Below, piece by piece: positions 26,324 through 60,007 of a stretch of DNA of 64,000 bases; position 1 is the first letter of the stretch; every line of letters starts with the position of its first letter. The stretch is from an uncultured Thermoleophilia bacterium. GTDB lineage: Bacteria; Actinomycetota; Thermoleophilia; Solirubrobacterales; 70-9. The translations under genes were made by a program, and so were the position numbers. The notes below the pieces were generated by a model. It saw only the letters and a program-made list of their open reading frames with translations. It did no database searches and was not told where the DNA came from. The DNA is taken from positions 965,994 to 1,029,993 of the forward strand of contig OY970365.1 of the NCBI GenBank assembly GCA_963718595.1, given 5' to 3'.

Positions 26324-28696
26324 ATGATCGGGACCTATGCCTCGGCGGCGCTGATCTGTGGCGCCTCGCTGCTGGTCGGCCGCGCGCTGCTGACGCTGGC
26401 CGGCCGGCGTGCTTGGTCGTGGCTGGAGCCGGGAGTCGGGTTCGGCGCGATCATCACCGTCAGCGGCTTGCTGGCGCGGGCGCCCGGGCACGGCACCGGC
26501 GCCAGCCTCGGCCTCCTCGCGCTGGTCGCGGTCGCGGCGGCCATCGTCTTCCGCGAGCGCGGCTACGAGGTCGCGGGCGTGCTGCGGGCCGGCGCACCGG
26601 TTGCGATCGCGATCGCTCTCCTGCTGGCGATTCCGTTCGCGGTCAGCGGCCACTGGGGGCTGCTCGGCGTCGGCTTCAACAACGACCTCGGGCTCCACCT
26701 CGCCTGGGCGGAGTGGCTGCGCAGCGGCTTCGGCCCGACGCCGGAGCCGGGCTACCCGCTCGGTCCGCACGGGCTGGCGGTGGCGACCGCGGTGGTTCCG
26801 GGAATCAACCTCGCGCAGGCCTTCATCGGCGAGATCGTCGCGATCGGCGTCCTCACCGGGTTGACCGCGATCGGCGCCCTCGGCGAGATGCGACCGGCGC
26901 GGCGGGCTCTGGCGGCGGTGCTGGTGGCGGTGCCCTACCTGGCCGCCTCCTACTTCGCCCAGGCGGCCTTCAAGGAGACCGCCGAGGCGCTCTTCGTGCT
27001 CAGCACCGTCGTCTTCCTCCTGGCGCCGGGGTCGTTGCCGACGGGGTTCCGGCGGCGACTGCGCTTCGCGCTGCCGGTACTGGCGCTGCTCGGCGGCATC
27101 TTCTTCTCCTACAGCTTCGCCGGCGTCGCCTGGCCGGTCGCGATCGCCGCCCTCTGGAGCCTGACCCTGCCGGCGGTGCGACGGGCGCTGCGGCCGAAGG
27201 CGCTGCTGCGCTTCCTGCTGCGACCGCTGACGCTGCTGGCGCTGATCGTCCTGGCCGGGCTCGCGGTCCTGGCCCTGGTCGGCCCCTTCGGCTTCGCCGG
27301 CGCCTTCAACAAGGTCGCCGGCAGCAACACCTACGGCCCGGTCTCGCCGATCGAGACGCTCGGCGTCTGGTGGAGCTCCAACTATCGCCTCGACGCGGTC
27401 GGCAGCGCCATGCTGCCGGGCTTGGCCGGGGCGATCGCGGTGGCGGCGCTACTGGTCGGCGTTGCCTGGTGGGTGCAGCGGCGCGAAGTGACGGTCCCGA
27501 TCGCGCTCGGCGGCGCCGCCGTCCTCTACCTGGTTTCGCTGCCCTTCAGCGGCGACTACTCGCAGGCCAAGGCCCTGATGATCGCCGCCCCGCTGGCAAT
27601 GCTGGTCGCCGCCAAACCGCTGATCTGGGAGTTCCCCCGCCTCGCCCGCCGACGGGCCGATAACGGGCCTATATCTCCCGTTATCGGCCCGTCGGCGGGG
27701 GTTTTGCGGGTTGGGTGGGCGCTGCTTGGCATCGCCTTCGTCGGCGGATCGATCTATTCGAGCCTGCTGGTGCTGCGGGACGCGCCGGTGGCGCCGCCGG
27801 GGCACGGGTCGGAGCTGCAGGCGTTCCTGCCGATCGTGCGCGGCGAGCCGGTGCTCTACGCGGGTCAGGACCGCTACGCCGCCTACGAGCTGCTCGGCGC
27901 CGACACCCACGTGCCGCTGGTCGAGTTTCCCGACGAGGCGGTCTCGCCCAACCCGGAGAAGCCGTTCGACACCGGCGACGCCTACAGCCCGATCGACTTC
28001 GACTCGTTCTCGACCGGCACCCTCAACGCCTTCCCCTATGTGGTCACCAGCCGCGCCGCCTGGAACAGCGAGGCGCCGCCGAACTTCAAGCGCGTCGCCG
28101 CCACCCCCTCCTACGTCCTCTGGGAACGCGACGGCGACACCCCCGAGGACCGCCAGGTCCTGCTCGAGGGAACCGCCGCTGGCGCCTACGCCGGCTGCGA
28201 CTCGCCCGAGATCCGCATCCTGCTCGCCAACCCCGGGCACGCGACGCTCTTCCCCGACGCCGTGGTCGGCGGCAAAGCCGACTGGGACGCCGGCTCGATC
28301 CTCAGCCCCGGCAGCGAGACCTCGCAGACCCTGGACCTGCCCGCCGGGACCTGGAACCTCTCCCTCCAGTACTTCTCCCCCCTCGCCCTCACCCTCTCCG
28401 CCCCCGGCTTCCAAGAGCCCCTCCACGCCGCCCTCGACGGCCAACGCCCGAACACGATCAGCCTCGGCAACAACGGCCAGTTCTGGCCCGCGGGCCGCTA
28501 CGAGAGCGACGGCGGCAGCACCCGCTTCACGCTCTCAGTAGCCGACGCCACCACGATCCAAGACCTCACCGGCTACAGCGGCAAGGCCTACATCGGCGAA
28601 CTGGTCGCCGTCCCAGCCAAGCCTCACCGGACCGTGCCCCTATCCCAGGCCTGCAACTCCTGGATCGACTCTTACGAATCCGACGCGGCACCGTAG
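26324..28696 (+). CDS. large polytopic membrane protein with a C-terminal extracytoplasmic domain (GT-C-like glycosyltransferase candidate)
   Basis: Track ORF from TTG 26312; ATG 26324 is more likely. More than 12 hydrophobic helices in the first ~470 aa, then a ~300-aa soluble region. The family call is an inference from architecture only. Confidence 0.7.
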   Translation: MIGTYASAALICGASLLVGRALLTLAGRRAWSWLEPGVGFGAIITVSGLLARAPGHGTGASLGLLALVAVAAAIVFRERGYEVAGVLRAGAPVAIAIALLLAIPFAVSGHWGLLGVGFNNDLGLHLAWAEWLRSGFGPTPEPGYPLGPHGLAVATAVVPGINLAQAFIGEIVAIGVLTGLTAIGALGEMRPARRALAAVLVAVPYLAASYFAQAAFKETAEALFVLSTVVFLLAPGSLPTGFRRRLRFALPVLALLGGIFFSYSFAGVAWPVAIAALWSLTLPAVRRALRPKALLRFLLRPLTLLALIVLAGLAVLALVGPFGFAGAFNKVAGSNTYGPVSPIETLGVWWSSNYRLDAVGSAMLPGLAGAIAVAALLVGVAWWVQRREVTVPIALGGAAVLYLVSLPFSGDYSQAKALMIAAPLAMLVAAKPLIWEFPRLARRRADNGPISPVIGPSAGVLRVGWALLGIAFVGGSIYSSLLVLRDAPVAPPGHGSELQAFLPIVRGEPVLYAGQDRYAAYELLGADTHVPLVEFPDEAVSPNPEKPFDTGDAYSPIDFDSFSTGTLNAFPYVVTSRAAWNSEAPPNFKRVAATPSYVLWERDGDTPEDRQVLLEGTAAGAYAGCDSPEIRILLANPGHATLFPDAVVGGKADWDAGSILSPGSETSQTLDLPAGTWNLSLQYFSPLALTLSAPGFQEPLHAALDGQRPNTISLGNNGQFWPAGRYESDGGSTRFTLSVADATTIQDLTGYSGKAYIGELVAVPAKPHRTVPLSQACNSWIDSYESDAAP
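27649..27695. repeat. 47-nt palindromic element (subtype I) inside the membrane-protein CDS
   Basis: ccgacgggccgataacggg-cctatatct-cccgttatcggcccgtcgg: perfect 19-bp arms with an AT-rich loop. Translated in frame as RRADNGPISPVIGPS. Confidence 0.85.
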
Positions 28697-33242: not shown

Positions 33243-34283
33243 CTAGTGCTCGAGCAGGTCCCGCTGGCTGAGCACGTAGAGCAAACCGAGCGCCGGCAGC
33301 ACCAGCAGCGCCGCGATCACGAAGACAACGAAGACCACGTCGAGGGTCGAGTCGGGCGCCGCTGCCTGGTCGATCCGCAGGCTGGTCGGCAGCAGGTACG
33401 GAAACTGCGCCACCGCCCAGCCCCAAATCACCGCGACCACGGCCCCCGCCGCCAACGGCCGCAAAAACACCCCGCCGACGGGCCGATTTGTCGCCTCACC
33501 GTTGACTTTTCGGCCCATCGACGAGAGGAGGAGGGCGATGGCGCCGAGGCCGCAGATGGCGCTGAGGATGACGAGGGGCAGGGCTTGGTCGGTGAGGCGG
33601 TCGAAGAGGTAGCGGGCTTCGGCGTGGAGCTCGACCAGGCCGAAGGCGGCGGCGGCCCCGGCGACGGCGCCGGCACCCAGCGCCCGCCGCGCAAAGTAGC
33701 GCTCGAGGTCGGCCTCGCCGGCGCGGCGGGCGTCGCCGACCAGGAAGACCGCGGAGAGGTAGGCGCCGGTGGCGACGAACATCGCCCCGATCAACAGCGG
33801 CAGCGGCGCCAGCCAGCTCGAGAAGGCGTCGCCGGTGCCGTCTGCGGGGACGTTGCCGCTGGCGATCGCGCCGACCACGGTGCCCATGAAGAACGGGGTC
33901 AGGACCGAGGAGAGGGCGAAGAGGGCGCCGAAGCTGCGCTGGCCGGTCAGCGTCGCCACCGTTTTGCGGAAGGCGAAGCCGGCGCCGCGCAGGACGATCC
34001 CCAGCGCCGCCAGCGCGATCGGCACGTAGAGGATGCTGAAGATGGCGCTGAAGGCGGGCGGGAAGGCGGTCCAGAGAACGACGAGGATGAAGATCAACCA
34101 GACGTGGTTGGCCTCCCAGACGGGGGTCAGCGAGCGCTGGATCAGCGCCCGCGGTTTCGCCCCCCTCTCGTCGCCGCCGGCGATGAGATCCCAGAAGCCG
34201 CCGCCGAAGTCGGCGCCGCCGAAGAGCGCGTAGAAGGTCGCCCCAACCCAGAGGATCGCCGCGGCGGCGTCGGCCTTGCTCAC
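33243..34283 (-). CDS. cydB: cytochrome bd ubiquinol oxidase subunit II
   Basis: Last 346 codons of track ORF 33243..36740, from GTG (cac 34281-34283) overlapping the cydA stop (GTGA). ILWVGATFYALFGGADFGGGFWDL... is typical of CydB. Confidence 0.9.
   Translation of the reverse strand: MSKADAAAAILWVGATFYALFGGADFGGGFWDLIAGGDERGAKPRALIQRSLTPVWEANHVWLIFILVVLWTAFPPAFSAIFSILYVPIALAALGIVLRGAGFAFRKTVATLTGQRSFGALFALSSVLTPFFMGTVVGAIASGNVPADGTGDAFSSWLAPLPLLIGAMFVATGAYLSAVFLVGDARRAGEADLERYFARRALGAGAVAGAAAAFGLVELHAEARYLFDRLTDQALPLVILSAICGLGAIALLLSSMGRKVNGEATNRPVGGVFLRPLAAGAVVAVIWGWAVAQFPYLLPTSLRIDQAAAPDSTLDVVFVVFVIAALLVLPALGLLYVLSQRDLLEH
33475..33520. repeat. palindromic element (subtype II) inside cydB
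   Basis: ccgacgggccgatttgtcgcctcaccgttgacttttcggcccatcg. Translated on the minus strand as SMGRKVNGEATNRPVG. Confidence 0.8.
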
Positions 34284-51837: not shown

Positions 51838-54800
51838 TTCCGCGCTACCGCGATCGTCAGTTCCATCCCGTCGATGCTGACCGTGGCGCCGTCGCCGGCG
51901 TCGAAGGAAACGGCGCTCGCCAGCACCTCCCCGACCAGGTAGGCCTGGTGCTCACGGGCGGCGTCCAGCAGCGCCTCCTCGCCGCCGAGCCCGAGCTCGA
52001 TCCGGTCGGTGATCTCCAACCCCGCCTCTTTACGCGCGATCTGGACCGCGTGGACGATCTCGCGGGCGAGCCCCTCGCGGCGCAGCTCCTCGTCGAGCTC
52101 GAGCGCCAGGGCAACCGCGTGCCCGGCCTCGGCCTCGACCTCGTAGCCCTCGAGCGGCTGCAGGGCGAGGCTGATGTCGTCGGGGGCAAGGGTGTGATCG
52201 GAGCCGTCGATCGAGATCCCGATCTCGCCGCCATCGGCAAGGACCGAAGCCACATGAGCGGCATCGAGCGCCGCCACCGCGGCGGCAACCTGCGGCATCG
52301 ACTTGCCGAAGCGCGGCCCGAGGGTGCGGTAGTTCGGCTTCGCCGTATAGCTCACCAGCTCGCCTTGATCACTGACGAAGTCGAGCTCTTTGACGTTGAG
52401 CTCCGCCAGGATGATCTCTGCCCGGGCCTCGATCGCGGTGCGCTCGCTCTCGTTGGCGACGATCACGGCGCGGCGCAGCGGCTGGCGCACCTTCGCCTTC
52501 GCCTGCGCACGGGCGGCGCGGCCGAGCTCGACCGTGAGCCGGACCGCCTCCATCCCGGCCTCCAGCTCGGGGTCGGCAAGGGCGGGGTCGACGACGGGGA
52601 AGTCGCGCAGGTGGACCGAGTCCTCGGCACCGCCGGAGCCGCCGGCGAGATTGAGATGGACCTCATCGGCGAGGAACGGCGTGAACGGGGCCAGCATCGC
52701 CACCGTCTCCAGCAGGCAGTGGCGCAGGGTCGCGAAGGCGGCCCGGTCGCCTTCCCAGAAGCGCCGCCGCGAGAGCCGCACGTACCAGTTGGAGAGCTCC
52801 TCGACGTACTCGGAGATCGCCTTGCCGGCGGTGGTGCAGTCGAAGTCGTCCATCCGCTCGCGCACGGTCGCGACCGTCGCCTGCAGCCGCGACAGCGCCC
52901 AGCGATCGAGGTCGTTCTCCGAATCGCGTGGTTCCTTACCGGCCTCAGGGGCCGAAAAGGAACCACGAGTGGGGAAGTCGTCGGGGCCGAGGCCCTCGGC
53001 GTTCGCGTAGAGGACCCAGAAGGAATAGGTGTTCCAGAGCGTCAGCATGAACTGGCGCACCGACTCGCCGACGGTGTCGACCGAGAAGCGGTAGCCGGCC
53101 CAGGGCTGCTGGGTCGCCAGGTAGTACCAGCGGAAGGCGTCGGCGCCGTGGGTCGCAAGCACGTCCCAGGGATCGACGACGTTGCCGCGGCTCTTCGACA
53201 TCTTCTGGCCCTCGGGGTCGAGGATCAGGCCGAGGCAGACGCAGTTGCGGAAGCTCGACTCGCCGAACAGCAGCGTCGACTCGGCCAGCAGCGTGTAGAA
53301 CCAGCCGCGGGTCTGGTCCTGGGCCTCGCAGATGTAGTCGGCGGGGAAGCGTTCGGCGAACAGCTCCTGGTTCTCGAACGGGTAGTGGAACTGGGCGAAC
53401 GGCATCGCGCCGCTGTCGTACCAGGTGTCGATCACCGAGTCGACGCGGTGCATCTCGCCGCCGCACTTGCCGCAGGGCCAGGTCACCTCGTCGATATAAG
53501 GACGGTGGAGGTCGTCGGGGGTGGCGGCGCCGGAGCGCTGGCCGAGCTCCTCGACCGAGCCGATGCACTCGACCTCGCCGCACTCGCGGTCGGCGCAGCG
53601 CCAGACCGGCAGCGGCGTCCCCCAGTAGCGGTCGCGCGAGAGCGCCCAGTCGACGTTGTTCTCCAGCCATTTGCCGAAGCGGCCGTGCTTGACGTGCTCG
53701 GGGTGCCAGCCGATCGTCTCGTTGTTGGCCAGCAGCTCCGCCTTCGCCTCGGAGGTGCGGACGTACCAGCTCGAGGTCGCGTAGTAGAGCAGCGGCGTGC
53801 CGCAGCGCCAGCAGTGCGGGTAGGAGTGCTCGTAGATCTGCTCGCGGAAGAGCAGGCCGCGGCGCTCGAGGTCGGCGATCAGCTCCCGCGTCAGCTCCGG
53901 ATCCTTGACGAAGCGGCCCTCGAAGCCGACGACGCGGCGGTCGAAGGTGCCGTCGGGAGCAACCGGGTTGTAGAGCGTCTCGCGCCGGGTCGGGTCGAAG
54001 ATTCCATTCGCCGCGGCCACCGCGTAGTCGTCCTCGCCGAAGGCGGGCGCGATGTGGACGAGCCCGGTGCCGTCCTCGGTAGTGACGAAGTCGCCAGCGA
54101 GAACGCTAAACACCGGCCGATGGGCCGATTTGTCAACCATGGGTTGACTTTTCGGCCCATCGGCAGCGGGGCCGCCGTCGCCGAGCTCGAAGACCGGGCC
54201 CTCGTAGCGGCGGCCGACCAAGTCGGCGCCGGGCAGGCGGTCGATCACCTCGGCTCCCTCCCCCAGCACCTTCTCGACCAGCGGCTCGGCCAGGACCAGG
54301 GTCTCGTCGCCGGACCGCACGCGCGCGTAGGTGACCTTGGGTGCGACCGCGACGGCGACGTTGCCGGGCAGGGTCCACGGGGTGGTCGTCCAGACCAGCA
54401 GCGACTCGCCCTCGGCGCCGAGCAGCGGGAAGCGCACATATATGGACGGGTCCTCGACGTCTTTGTAGCCCTGCGCGACCTCGTGCGAGGAGAGCGGCGT
54501 GCCGTCGCGCGGGCAGTAAGGCACGACCTTGTGGCCCTCGTAGAGGCGGCCGCCGTCGAAGAGCTTCTTCAGCGACCACCAGACCGACTCGATGTAGTCG
54601 TCCTCGAGCGTGACATAGGGGTGGTCGAGATCGATCCAGTAGCCGATCCGCTCGGTCAGCTTGTTCCAGTCCTCGACGTACTCGAAGACCGACTCGCGGC
54701 AGCGCTGGTTGAACTCGGCGATCCCGAACTCCTCGATCTCGTCCTTGGAGGAGATCCCCAGCTGTTTTTCGACCTCGAGCTCGACCGGCAGCCCGTGGCA

Positions 54801-57154: not shown

Positions 57155-60007
57155 CTGCTCGAGCAGGATCAGGACGGATTCGTAGGGCTCGCCGGTGGCG
57201 CGCTCGAGGCCGATCTCGCAGGTGCGGTTACTGGAGAGGCGGGCGTCGAAGTGGCGGCCCTCGAGCTCTTCGGCCTGGGGGCGGGTGGCGGCCTCGGTCA
57301 GCTCCGGGTGAGAGATGCCGCGGTCGCCGGCGAAGCCGCAGCAGGTGGCCGAGGGAGCGATGTAGACCTCGTCGGCGAGGGTGTCGGCGAGGACGCGGAT
57401 CTTCGGGGTCAGGCCCATGCGACGGGTGGCGCAGGTCGGGTGGACGGTGGCCGAGCCGGTCCGCTCGGCGACCTCGAGCCAGGGCAGCAGGCGGTCGTGC
57501 GCCCAGGCGACAGAGTCGAGGATCTCCAGCTTCCCGAGCCGCTCGGCGTTCTCCTCGCTGAGCACCCCGGCGCCGGGCTCGGCGACCGCGTTGGTGCAGG
57601 AGGCGGCGTCGACCACGATCGGCAGCGCTCCCTCGCCGCTCCACTCCCAGAGCCGCTCGACCATCTCGTTGGCCTTGAAGCGGTGGGCATCGGCGAACCC
57701 TTTGGAGCTCCAGGGCAGCCCGCAGCAGCTGCCGACCACGTCGGGTGGGATCCAGACCGGCTTCCCGGCCCGCGCGGACACTTCCACCAGCGCCTCGACA
57801 ACCCACCGCCGACGGGCCGATTTGGGGCCTATATCTCCTCTTTTCGGCCCGTCGGCCGCGGTGCCGAAGATGCGGTTGGTGCAGGAGGGGACGTAGACGG
57901 CGGTGGCCCCGGTGTGGATCGTCACCGGCAGCTTGCTCGAGGCGGCGCCCGGCAGCGCTCGTCCGCGCTTGGTCCGGCGGGCGATCGGACCGCCGACCCG
58001 CAGGCCCAGCCGTGAGGCGCCCTCGACCATGCCCCAGCGCTGCGCTTTGCGCAGCGCCGAGCGCTCCTCGCGCTCGGAGTGCTCGCGGTGGCGCAGGTCC
58101 TTGACCAGGGCGCCGGTGTCGATCCCGACCGGGCAGGCGATCTGGCAGGAGCCGTCGGCGGCGCAGGTTGCCAGCGCCTCGTACTCGAATTCCTTCTCCA
58201 GGGCCAGCCGCACCGGGGAGTCCTCGGGCTGGCGGGCGATCTCCCGCCGCAGCACGATCCGCTGCCGCGGCGTCGTCGTCAGGTCGCGGCTGGGGCAGAC
58301 CGGCTCGCAGAATCCGCACTCCACGCAGGAGGTCGCCGACTCCTCGATCGGCGGCGTCGTTTTCAGGTTGCGCAGGTGCGCGTCGGGGTCGCGGTTGAGG
58401 ACGACGCCCGGGGAGAGCACCCCGTCGGGATCGGCCAGCCGCTTGATCCGCCACATCAGCTCGGTCGCCCGCTCGCCCCACTCTCGCTCCACATAAGGGG
58501 CCATGTTGATCCCGGTCCCGTGCTCGGCCTTGAGCGAGCCGTCGTACTTGCCGACGATCAGCTCGACCAGCTTGCCCATGAAGGCCTCGTAGCGGTCGAG
58601 GTCCTCCTGTTTGGCGAAGTCCGGGGTCAGCATGAAATGGAGGTTGCCGGCGGAGGCGTGGCCGGCGACGCCGGCCAGGAACCCGTGCTCCCCCAGCAAC
58701 GCCTGCAGGTCGCGGGCGCCCTCGGCGATCCGCTCCGGCGGCACGCAGACGTCCTCGACGATCAGCGCCGTCCCGGCCAGTCGCAGTTTGCCGATCAGCC
58801 CGTGCAGGCCCTCGCGCACGCGCCAGCTCAGCTCGATCTCCTCGAGCTCGCGGGAGAAGGCGATCGGGCGGATCGTCTCGTGCGAGGAGAGCAGCGCTTC
58901 GGCGCCGGCCACGTACCCGGCCAGCCCGGCCTCCTCCTCGGCACCGAACTCGACCAGCAGCACCGCCGACTCGGGCGGCAGCTCTTTCCACTCCTGCGGC
59001 GCCCCGACCATGTTCCAGGCGGCGGTGATCAGGGCCGGCGCGACCATCAGCTCGACCGCGGTGGCGCCGGACTCGACCAGGTCGGGGACGGTCGCGATCG
59101 CGGCGTCGATGCTGGGGAAGTGAACCCAGGCGGTGGTGGTCACGGCCGGCAGCGGCACGGTCTCGAAGACCGCCTCGGCGACGAAGCCGAGCGTGCCCTC
59201 CGAGCCGACCAGGAGGCGGCGGAAGATCTCCAGCGGCTCGTCGGCATCGAGGAAGGCGCAAAGGCGGTAGCCGGTCGTGTTCTTGATCGCGAACTTGCGG
59301 CGGATCCGCTCGCTGAGCTCGGCATCGGCGCGAATCTCGTCGCGGATCGCTTCCAGGCCGGCGGCAAGCTCCGGCTCGGCGGCGGCGAACTGCTCGCCCG
59401 CGCCGGGGGCGGAGCTGTCGATCGTCGTCCCCGAGGGGAGGACGAAGGTGAGCGCGCGCACGGTCGAGTAGGAGTCCCTGGTGACGCCGCAGCGCATCCC
59501 GCCCGAGTTGTTGGCGATCACGCCGCCGACGGTGGCGACGTCGGTCGAGGCCGGGTCGGGGCCGAGCTTGCGACCGTGTGGGGCGAGCACGCGGTTGACG
59601 TGGCCGAGGATCGTGCCCGGCTTGACCCGGGCACGGGCGCCGTCCTCCTCGACCGCGACGCCGCCGAAGTGGCGGCGCACGTCGACGAGGATGCCGTCGC
59701 TCTGGCCCTGGCCGTTGAGGCTGGTGCCGCCGGCGCGGAAGGTGACCGGGATCCCCTGCTCGCGGCCGAAGGCGAGCACCTTGGCGACGTCGCCGGCGTC
59801 GTGCGCCATCACCACCGCGCGCGGGAAGAGCCGGTAGGGGCTGGCGTCGGAGGCGTACTTGACCAGGTCGCCGGGGCTGGTCAGCACCCGGTCGGCGCCG
59901 AGCAGCCCCTCCAGTTCGCCGCGCAACGGCTGCGCGACCCCGGCCGCGAGCTCGTCCGGAGCGCGGTCGACGGCGGGCGCCGGAACGGTTGCGACGCCCT
60001 CCGTCAC
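57137..60007 (-). CDS. FAD-binding oxidase fused to a 4Fe-4S dicluster and CCG domains (GlcD-GlcF / D-lactate dehydrogenase-like)
   Basis: Track ORF trimmed to GTG (cac 60005-60007). FAD PCMH domain (FRAGGTSLNGQ), CVECGFCEPVCPS and CAADGSCQIACPVG clusters, CCG motifs SCCGLPW and TCCGFAG. Confidence 0.85.
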   Translation of the reverse strand: MTEGVATVPAPAVDRAPDELAAGVAQPLRGELEGLLGADRVLTSPGDLVKYASDASPYRLFPRAVVMAHDAGDVAKVLAFGREQGIPVTFRAGGTSLNGQGQSDGILVDVRRHFGGVAVEEDGARARVKPGTILGHVNRVLAPHGRKLGPDPASTDVATVGGVIANNSGGMRCGVTRDSYSTVRALTFVLPSGTTIDSSAPGAGEQFAAAEPELAAGLEAIRDEIRADAELSERIRRKFAIKNTTGYRLCAFLDADEPLEIFRRLLVGSEGTLGFVAEAVFETVPLPAVTTTAWVHFPSIDAAIATVPDLVESGATAVELMVAPALITAAWNMVGAPQEWKELPPESAVLLVEFGAEEEAGLAGYVAGAEALLSSHETIRPIAFSRELEEIELSWRVREGLHGLIGKLRLAGTALIVEDVCVPPERIAEGARDLQALLGEHGFLAGVAGHASAGNLHFMLTPDFAKQEDLDRYEAFMGKLVELIVGKYDGSLKAEHGTGINMAPYVEREWGERATELMWRIKRLADPDGVLSPGVVLNRDPDAHLRNLKTTPPIEESATSCVECGFCEPVCPSRDLTTTPRQRIVLRREIARQPEDSPVRLALEKEFEYEALATCAADGSCQIACPVGIDTGALVKDLRHREHSEREERSALRKAQRWGMVEGASRLGLRVGGPIARRTKRGRALPGAASSKLPVTIHTGATAVYVPSCTNRIFGTAADGPKRGDIGPKSARRRWVVEALVEVSARAGKPVWIPPDVVGSCCGLPWSSKGFADAHRFKANEMVERLWEWSGEGALPIVVDAASCTNAVAEPGAGVLSEENAERLGKLEILDSVAWAHDRLLPWLEVAERTGSATVHPTCATRRMGLTPKIRVLADTLADEVYIAPSATCCGFAGDRGISHPELTEAATRPQAEELEGRHFDARLSSNRTCEIGLERATGEPYESVLILLEQLTRNG
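57809..57855. repeat. 47-nt palindromic element (subtype I) inside the FAD/Fe-S oxidase CDS
   Basis: ccgacgggccgatttggggcctatatctcctcttttcggcccgtcgg. Translated on the minus strand as ADGPKRGDIGPKSARR. Confidence 0.85.

Follow-up and report, generated by a model that had tools for sequence, protein, structure and literature searches.

The palindrome inside the isoleucyl-tRNA synthetase gene (ileS) of an uncultured Solirubrobacterales bacterium (Thermoleophilia) is very probably one copy of a spreading, genus-restricted hairpin family that lies in frame in its host gene and is tolerated there as selfish DNA. A small hairpin-forming repeat of ~53 nt would have spread through the Solirubrobacterales genome and one copy would have landed in frame in ileS, where it is presumably translated as a Gly/Pro/Ser/Lys-rich loop of 16-17 residues, placed in a surface-exposed beta-hairpin turn of the CP1 editing domain. 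Such a loop would leave the fold as well as the editing and catalytic motifs undisturbed, and would thereby persist as tolerated selfish DNA. The analysis started from a window of 64,000 nt and was extended to the source genome (G000; 69% GC) and its relatives; all close ileS relatives come from soil metagenome-assembled genomes.

The host protein is a type-2 isoleucyl-tRNA synthetase, with the motifs and the IleRS2 fold of this enzyme. Its best solved relative is the Priestia megaterium IleRS2 (PDB 8c8w, E = 7e-289), the Thermus thermophilus IleRS is also among the best PDB matches, and the TIGR00392 model scores 890 bits against a cut-off of 621 bits. The predicted structure superposes on IleRS2 structures with TMt values of 0.84-0.87, and the protein has kept every column that does not vary among 49 orthologues, TTTPWT, GTGxVH and KMSKS among them. 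The whole 2.86-Mb genome holds no other TIGR00392 match above the cut-off, and the ileS of the window is therefore the working copy. Since the genome has no other ileS, we take the insert to be tolerated, as confidently as we hold the explanation as a whole, with the segment presumably translated and the enzyme presumably active.

The initial annotation had described a palindrome at 54117-54163 in ileS. Its presence and location stand, with the small correction that the recurring unit is 53 nt long and often carries a tail (Table 1). The element has outer arms CGGCCGATGGGCCGA / TCGGCCCATCGGCAG with A/T bulges, an inner stem GTCAAC/GTTGAC and a loop of 5 nt, and is matched by the family profile at genome positions 1020107-1020159 (nhmmer, E = 3.4e-11). 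Read as a nested inverted repeat, its arms (54116-54138 and 54142-54164, 23 nt each) are 87% complementary; the window has a single occurrence of the pattern CCGATGGGCCGA-N23-TCGGCCCATCGG, where shuffles predict 0. The predicted RNA fold reaches -46.7 kcal/mol (z = -5.7 against shuffled sequences), and GC content falls to 0.54 at the palindrome within a region of ~0.72. The short tail on one side may also be part of the element: it lies beside about half of the copies of the family and goes with the filled alleles in other genes, while the flank consensus of the copies includes GGGGTTT and the tail motif is moderately conserved.

The element belongs to a dispersed family, here called family 1, of which a profile search with nhmmer finds 61 copies in the source genome with a unit of ~53 nt. 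A strict pattern recovers 14 copies in the genome and 0 in a reversed control; a looser search of the outer stem by regular expression was abandoned in favour of the profile, as it gave more than 1000 chance matches in this GC-rich genome. The unit consists of conserved outer arms (CCGCCGAYGGGCCGA / TCGGCCCRTCGGCGG), A/T bulges and a variable inner stem, which comes in two main types and has a TATA-like loop. Between 26 and 28 of the 61 copies are intragenic and in frame, as judged by spanning ORFs with a GC3 of ~0.9 on either side, and 28 lie wholly within high-GC3 ORFs. At least 18 of the in-frame copies are in recognisable genes, with family models that extend across the insertion site or flank it: IleS, PheT, PriA, PabAB, DnaE2 (two copies), PurQ, HolB, BioD, Dxs, FolC, CydB, an FAD-oxidase/Fe-S protein, a GT87 glycosyltransferase, a UvrD-like helicase, an E2 acyltransferase, PgeF and KdpC. 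Three copies in ORFs of the window besides that in ileS are listed in Table 1; no Pfam family matched the membrane protein that hosts the first of them, and the site in the FAD-oxidase/Fe-S protein is also filled in the sister genome (G014). The copies encode three classes of peptide, ADGPxSGxxxPKSAHR, TGRFxxxxxxRNRPxG and RRRAxxGPISPEIGPSA, which simply correspond to the three reading frames of the palindrome and thus argue against selection for a particular peptide. An unusual freedom of the element from stop codons was considered and dismissed, since 4-6 of its 6 frames are open, as in random 52-mers of the genome.

Table 1. Positions in the window of ileS, of the inserts that it carries and of three further copies of family 1 in ORFs.
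Feature	Position	Strand	Evidence or product
ileS, type-2 isoleucyl-tRNA synthetase, 1076 aa	51834..55064	-	ORF, PDB match, TIGR00392, fold superposition
Family-1 palindromic element in ileS	54114..54166		nhmmer, inverted repeat, RNA fold
Putative one-sided tail AAACAC (coding strand GTGTTT = Val-Phe)	54108..54113		Filled/empty alleles, flank consensus
Inserted peptide AADGPKSQPMVDKSAHRP, IleS residues 300-317	54114..54167	-	Translation and model
Second in-frame hairpin insert in ileS, family 2, GTGGTTCCTT...AAGGAACCAC	52926..52967	-	Encodes RGSFSAPEAGKEPR, residues 700-713
Family-1 copy in 811-aa membrane-protein ORF, peptide RRRADNGPISPVIGPSAG	27646..27698		GC3 0.94 and 0.90 either side
Family-1 copy in frame in cytochrome bd subunit II, peptide SSMGRKVNGEATNRPVGG	33472..33523		PF02322 spans the site
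Family-1 copy in frame in FAD-oxidase/Fe-S/CCG protein, peptide AADGPKRGDIGPKSARRR	57806..57858		Interdomain linker

Within the genus, each genome has between 0 and 105 matches to the outer-stem pattern, the source genome 49 and the sister genome 7, and outside the genus the pattern is at background level. Judged from this distribution, family 1 is a genus-restricted palindromic repeat family. A literature search on such repeats in Solirubrobacterales returned nothing relevant. Copies can lie close together: a stretch of ~700 bp around pgeF (G000:C1:2852344-2853046) holds two copies of family 1, one in frame and one at the 5' end of the gene, along with a copy of a second family at 2852674.

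That the palindrome in ileS is genuine extra sequence, and not a conserved segment of the gene, emerges from the comparison of the site in 20 relatives from the genus and order and 80 further loci (~90 orthologues). The initial annotation had described this part of IleS as normally short, and an alignment of type-2 enzymes bears this out: all but two of the orthologues have a short turn, of the form ...VFxLxD(GGP/REP)xxF(R/P)V..., and besides the source genome only G008 (public record OY970392.1) carries an element, leaving ~88 of ~90 without. The ileS of the sister genome, which is 93% identical, lacks the insert, and in a HMMER alignment of IleS to 8c8w the insert falls in a gap. The extra loop, put at 15-16 residues beforehand, amounts to a net 48 nt (16 aa) relative to orthologues that share the flanking allele and to 51 nt (17 aa) relative to G014, the nearest relative. 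It is conceivable that an insert in a metagenome-assembled genome arose in assembly or binning. However, the genome is a single contig of 2.86 Mb, the frame is unbroken, the independent assembly OY970392.1 has this insert at this very site and 60 further copies lie elsewhere in the genome, so that the chance of such an artefact is negligible.

The turn that received the insert naturally varies in length across the genus. It exists in two allele classes (DREPGGFPV and DGGPAxAFRV, at ileS codons ~285-325 in L005-L104), and the distribution of these classes conflicts with the ileS tree, which indicates, as far as can be read from the alleles, that species of the genus have exchanged parts of ileS by recombination. 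At exactly the same turn, the ileS of another genome (G015, L016) holds a different, Gly/Ala/Ser-rich insert of 29 residues (RASDGAGNEGGAASPGSSAAGRSAEGAAAP), and five other orthologues have 5-6 extra residues. These inserts and extensions may be decayed elements or independent expansions. Some empty alleles already hold the terminal 8-9 nt of an arm, namely CCGCCGACG in ileS and CGTCGGCG in the UvrD-like helicase gene, which could reflect either a target preference or a deletion scar.

In the translated protein, AADGPKSQPMVDKSAHRP is followed by VFSVLAGDFVTTEDGTGLVHIAPAFGEDD, exactly as first written down, and lies shortly upstream of the editing-domain block FVTTEDGTGLVH. Within CP1, the editing domain, it sits where a beta-hairpin turns, 13 residues ahead of TTEDGTG, in keeping with the original placement just upstream of this block. 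Structural modelling, which had been proposed as a way to see whether the insert is a disordered surface loop, gave a compatible picture. In an AlphaFold2 model built from an alignment of 49 sequences (mean pLDDT 89.6, pTM 0.83), the only stretch with a pLDDT below 50 is formed by residues 307-313, the centre of the insert, and mean values are 51 for residues 301-310 and 62 for residues 311-320. Residues 289-317 are modelled as coil between strands 286-288 and 318-323, and the second of these strands runs on to the editing motif GTGLVH. Accordingly, although a low pLDDT does not by itself prove disorder, the most plausible reading of the insert is a disordered loop at the protein surface, in the CP1 beta-hairpin turn. 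Tryptic peptides predicted from the insert-bearing IleS include SQPMVDK and SAHRPVFSVLAGDFVTTEDGTGLVHIAPAFGEDDYAVAAANGIFDPTR.

One might suppose that the loop is an adaptive addition to the editing domain at the protein level, for example a new contact to tRNA or to a partner protein, as its in-frame retention in an essential gene of two species could suggest. However, the loop is predicted to be disordered and has a low-complexity composition, it is absent from the sister species, and the same DNA gives three different peptides in other hosts. Moreover, the interior of the peptide differs between the two species that carry it (KSQPMVDK in G000, ISRSWVDI in G008). An adaptive role of the loop is thus very improbable.

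The ileS gene carries a second in-frame hairpin insert, from a different family (family 2), which is a sister family with a nested architecture like that of family 1. Its pattern, GGTTCCTT-N(18-20)-AAGGAACC, has 25 exact-stem copies in the source genome. The family-2 insert is patchy among ileS orthologues, and residues 701-710, which belong to it, form the region of second-lowest confidence in the model (mean pLDDT 53). By the sequence of the gene, ileS tolerates two independent hairpin inserts. This bears on the suggestion of the initial annotation that ileS offers a clean test case for tolerated in-frame insertion: tolerance appears to hold, given a sole ileS with its invariant columns kept, but the case is not clean, owing to the variable turn and to the second hairpin at residues 700-713.

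Family 1 appears to turn over between close relatives. When the joined flanks of all 61 copies were used as queries against five relatives, ~27 sites filled in the source genome were found empty in G014 and ~7 were common to both, a pattern that points to recent activity or turnover. Several sites are filled in distant genomes and empty in closer ones. The ileS insert of G008 has junctions that are nucleotide-identical to those in G000, and the filling of this nucleotide-exact site in a non-sister genome speaks against random insertion. In the ileS tree, G000 groups with the insert-free G014 (98/98) and G008 with the insert-free G018 (100/99). This topology requires two changes or more, and the two insert-bearing genes are united in 0 of 200 bootstrap trees. 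The arms of the two ileS copies are identical at 35 of 37 positions and the inner 23 nt at ~61%, compared with a gene-wide third-position identity of 74%.

The conserved arms could reflect a constraint on the hairpin itself. It is possible to imagine that the hairpin is kept in ileS for a function in DNA or RNA, as a translational pause, an mRNA-stability signal or a REP-like protein-binding site. Such a function would fit the excess of arm identity over third-position identity, the equal stability of coding and other copies (median -40.4 and -40.5 kcal/mol, p = 0.79) and the many intergenic copies that abut stop codons. However, ileS does not need the element, since it is absent from the sister ileS and from nearly all other orthologues. 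Copies are also found in genes unrelated to one another, where they use each of the three frames and either orientation, and the Rfam search gave no matching family, only sub-threshold noise. Recent or independent insertion would explain the conserved arms equally well. We therefore regard a retained hairpin function as unlikely and continue to read the ileS copy as tolerated selfish DNA.

How G000 and G008 came to share the site can be explained by independent insertion at a preferred target, by transfer through recombination of a short segment, or by an old insert followed by repeated loss; it should be one of these three. The distribution of the allele classes of the turn against the tree favours some recombination at the site. 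A single old insertion, followed by short-segment homologous recombination and internal deletions rather than by a second insertion, would account for the nucleotide-identical junctions, for the conflict of the DREPGGFPV and DGGPAxAFRV classes with the ileS tree and for the existence of intermediate alleles with 5-6 extra residues. Internal deletions do seem to occur. At the second dnaE2 site (G000:C1:1406532-1406583), the 'empty' alleles of G014 and G016 (L139, L140) keep stubs of both arms (GCCGGTGGGCT… and GGCGATGGGCT-CCCTCGG) and look like in-frame internal deletion scars, so that some empty sites would in fact be scars. On the other hand, a single insertion sits uneasily with a tree that demands more than one change and never unites the insert-bearing genes, and with the fact that each ileS copy has an inner stem typical of the subfamily of its own genome. 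The cydB site of the window points in the same direction: the sister genomes G008 and G018 (L112, L113) hold family-1 copies there with identical outer arms and unrelated inner stems (AAGTTGAG…GTCAAC in G008, CCCACGAC…GTGGG in G018), a difference suggesting that copies were replaced or inserted anew instead of being simply inherited. Taken together, one old insertion is a serious possibility, though one that falls somewhat short of probable. At the purQ site (G000:C1:1175093-1175143), which is filled by family 1 in G000 and G018, G016 (L116) has an unrelated insert of 45 nt (…GGATTGACCCCCGCCGAGGGGGGAAAAGACACC…), and the same surface loops seem to collect different small inserts.

None of the signatures of conventional transposition that were searched for accompanies family 1. 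Aligned alleles reveal no target-site duplication at 10 filled/empty site comparisons, Y1/RAYT transposases (PF01797) are found in 0 of 61 genomes of the genus (with positive controls) and TnpB likewise in 0 of 61. Of the 61 genomes, 26 have IS110 elements; these include only 2 of the 10 that hold at least 30 copies of the repeat, and not the source genome; none of these three transposase families correlates with copy number. The lack of target-site duplications and of a partner among Y1, TnpB and IS110 suggests a non-canonical route, and we infer that movement proceeds by a duplication-free mechanism based on hairpins or recombination. A bolder and rather doubtful proposal is that family 1 consists of hairpin elements that need no transposase and that home to nucleotide-exact sites across species or are copied into them again. 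It draws on the ileS site being filled in two non-sister lineages, on other sites being filled in distant genomes and empty in closer ones, and on orthologous copies, which have identical outer arms that enclose inner stems typical of their own genome. If true, it would imply targeted insertion or gene conversion via the conserved arms, for which there is, to our knowledge, no precedent among the palindromic repeats of bacteria. The recurrence at one ileS site could help to reveal how such elements move, and the ileS with the insert and its 93%-identical sister without it form a natural pair for studying the tolerance of the editing domain to insertion.

Bacterial MITEs, small non-autonomous hairpin repeats (ERIC, Correia, QMITE1 of Coxiella, Nezha), sometimes fuse in frame with host ORFs, and the Rickettsia palindromic elements (RPEs) are the extreme case of such fusions (PMC10969869). 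By analogy, RPEs are the closest counterpart of family 1, which resembles them and is not a member. Both are dispersed hairpin-forming palindromic repeats (here with 61 copies and a fold z of -5.7), both insert frequently and in frame into unrelated housekeeping genes (here 18 by family models and 26-28 by ORF and GC3), and both encode no transposase of their own. RPEs are translated as additional stretches that fit the fold of the host protein, and the placement of the insert on the protein surface in a manner compatible with the fold would be a further likeness, seen here for IleS only and as a predicted coil. However, RPEs are ~100-150 bp long, have a conserved peptide per family and inhabit AT-rich, obligate intracellular alpha-proteobacteria. 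The family-1 unit of ~53 nt has about a third of this length, uses three frames to give three peptide classes where RPEs have one conserved peptide, resides in a free-living soil actinobacterium of 69% GC and has no sequence relationship to RPEs.

Other known repeats are more distant. REP/BIME elements of E. coli and Pseudomonas are also short and imperfectly palindromic, are similar in size to family 1 and reach tens to hundreds of copies, of which many directly follow stop codons; they too show no target-site duplication. Yet REPs are extragenic by definition, have a conserved GTAG head and co-occur with the Y1 (RAYT) transposase, whereas nearly half of the family-1 copies are intragenic (the 28 of 61 within high-GC3 ORFs), their flank consensus (...CGCCGCCGAC / GTCGGCGGGGGGTTT) has no GTAG head and Y1 is missing from all 61 genomes of the genus. 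MITEs share with family 1 the small size, the hairpin and the in-frame host fusions, but they have terminal inverted repeats that match a parent IS and leave target-site duplications, whereas at 10 sites of family 1 no such duplication was seen, and a search limited to Y1, TnpB and IS110 brought up no candidate parent element. Palindromic repeats that lie in frame in essential genes have mostly been seen as peculiar to Rickettsia. The ileS case extends this picture by a modelled example from a gene that is both essential and present once, by a second family and by evidence for recurrence at the same site; two families share one aminoacyl-tRNA synthetase, and the family-1 unit is much shorter than in the Rickettsia case. 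The same behaviour in a free-living, GC-rich actinobacterium suggests that the addition of protein loops by selfish DNA may be a more general route.
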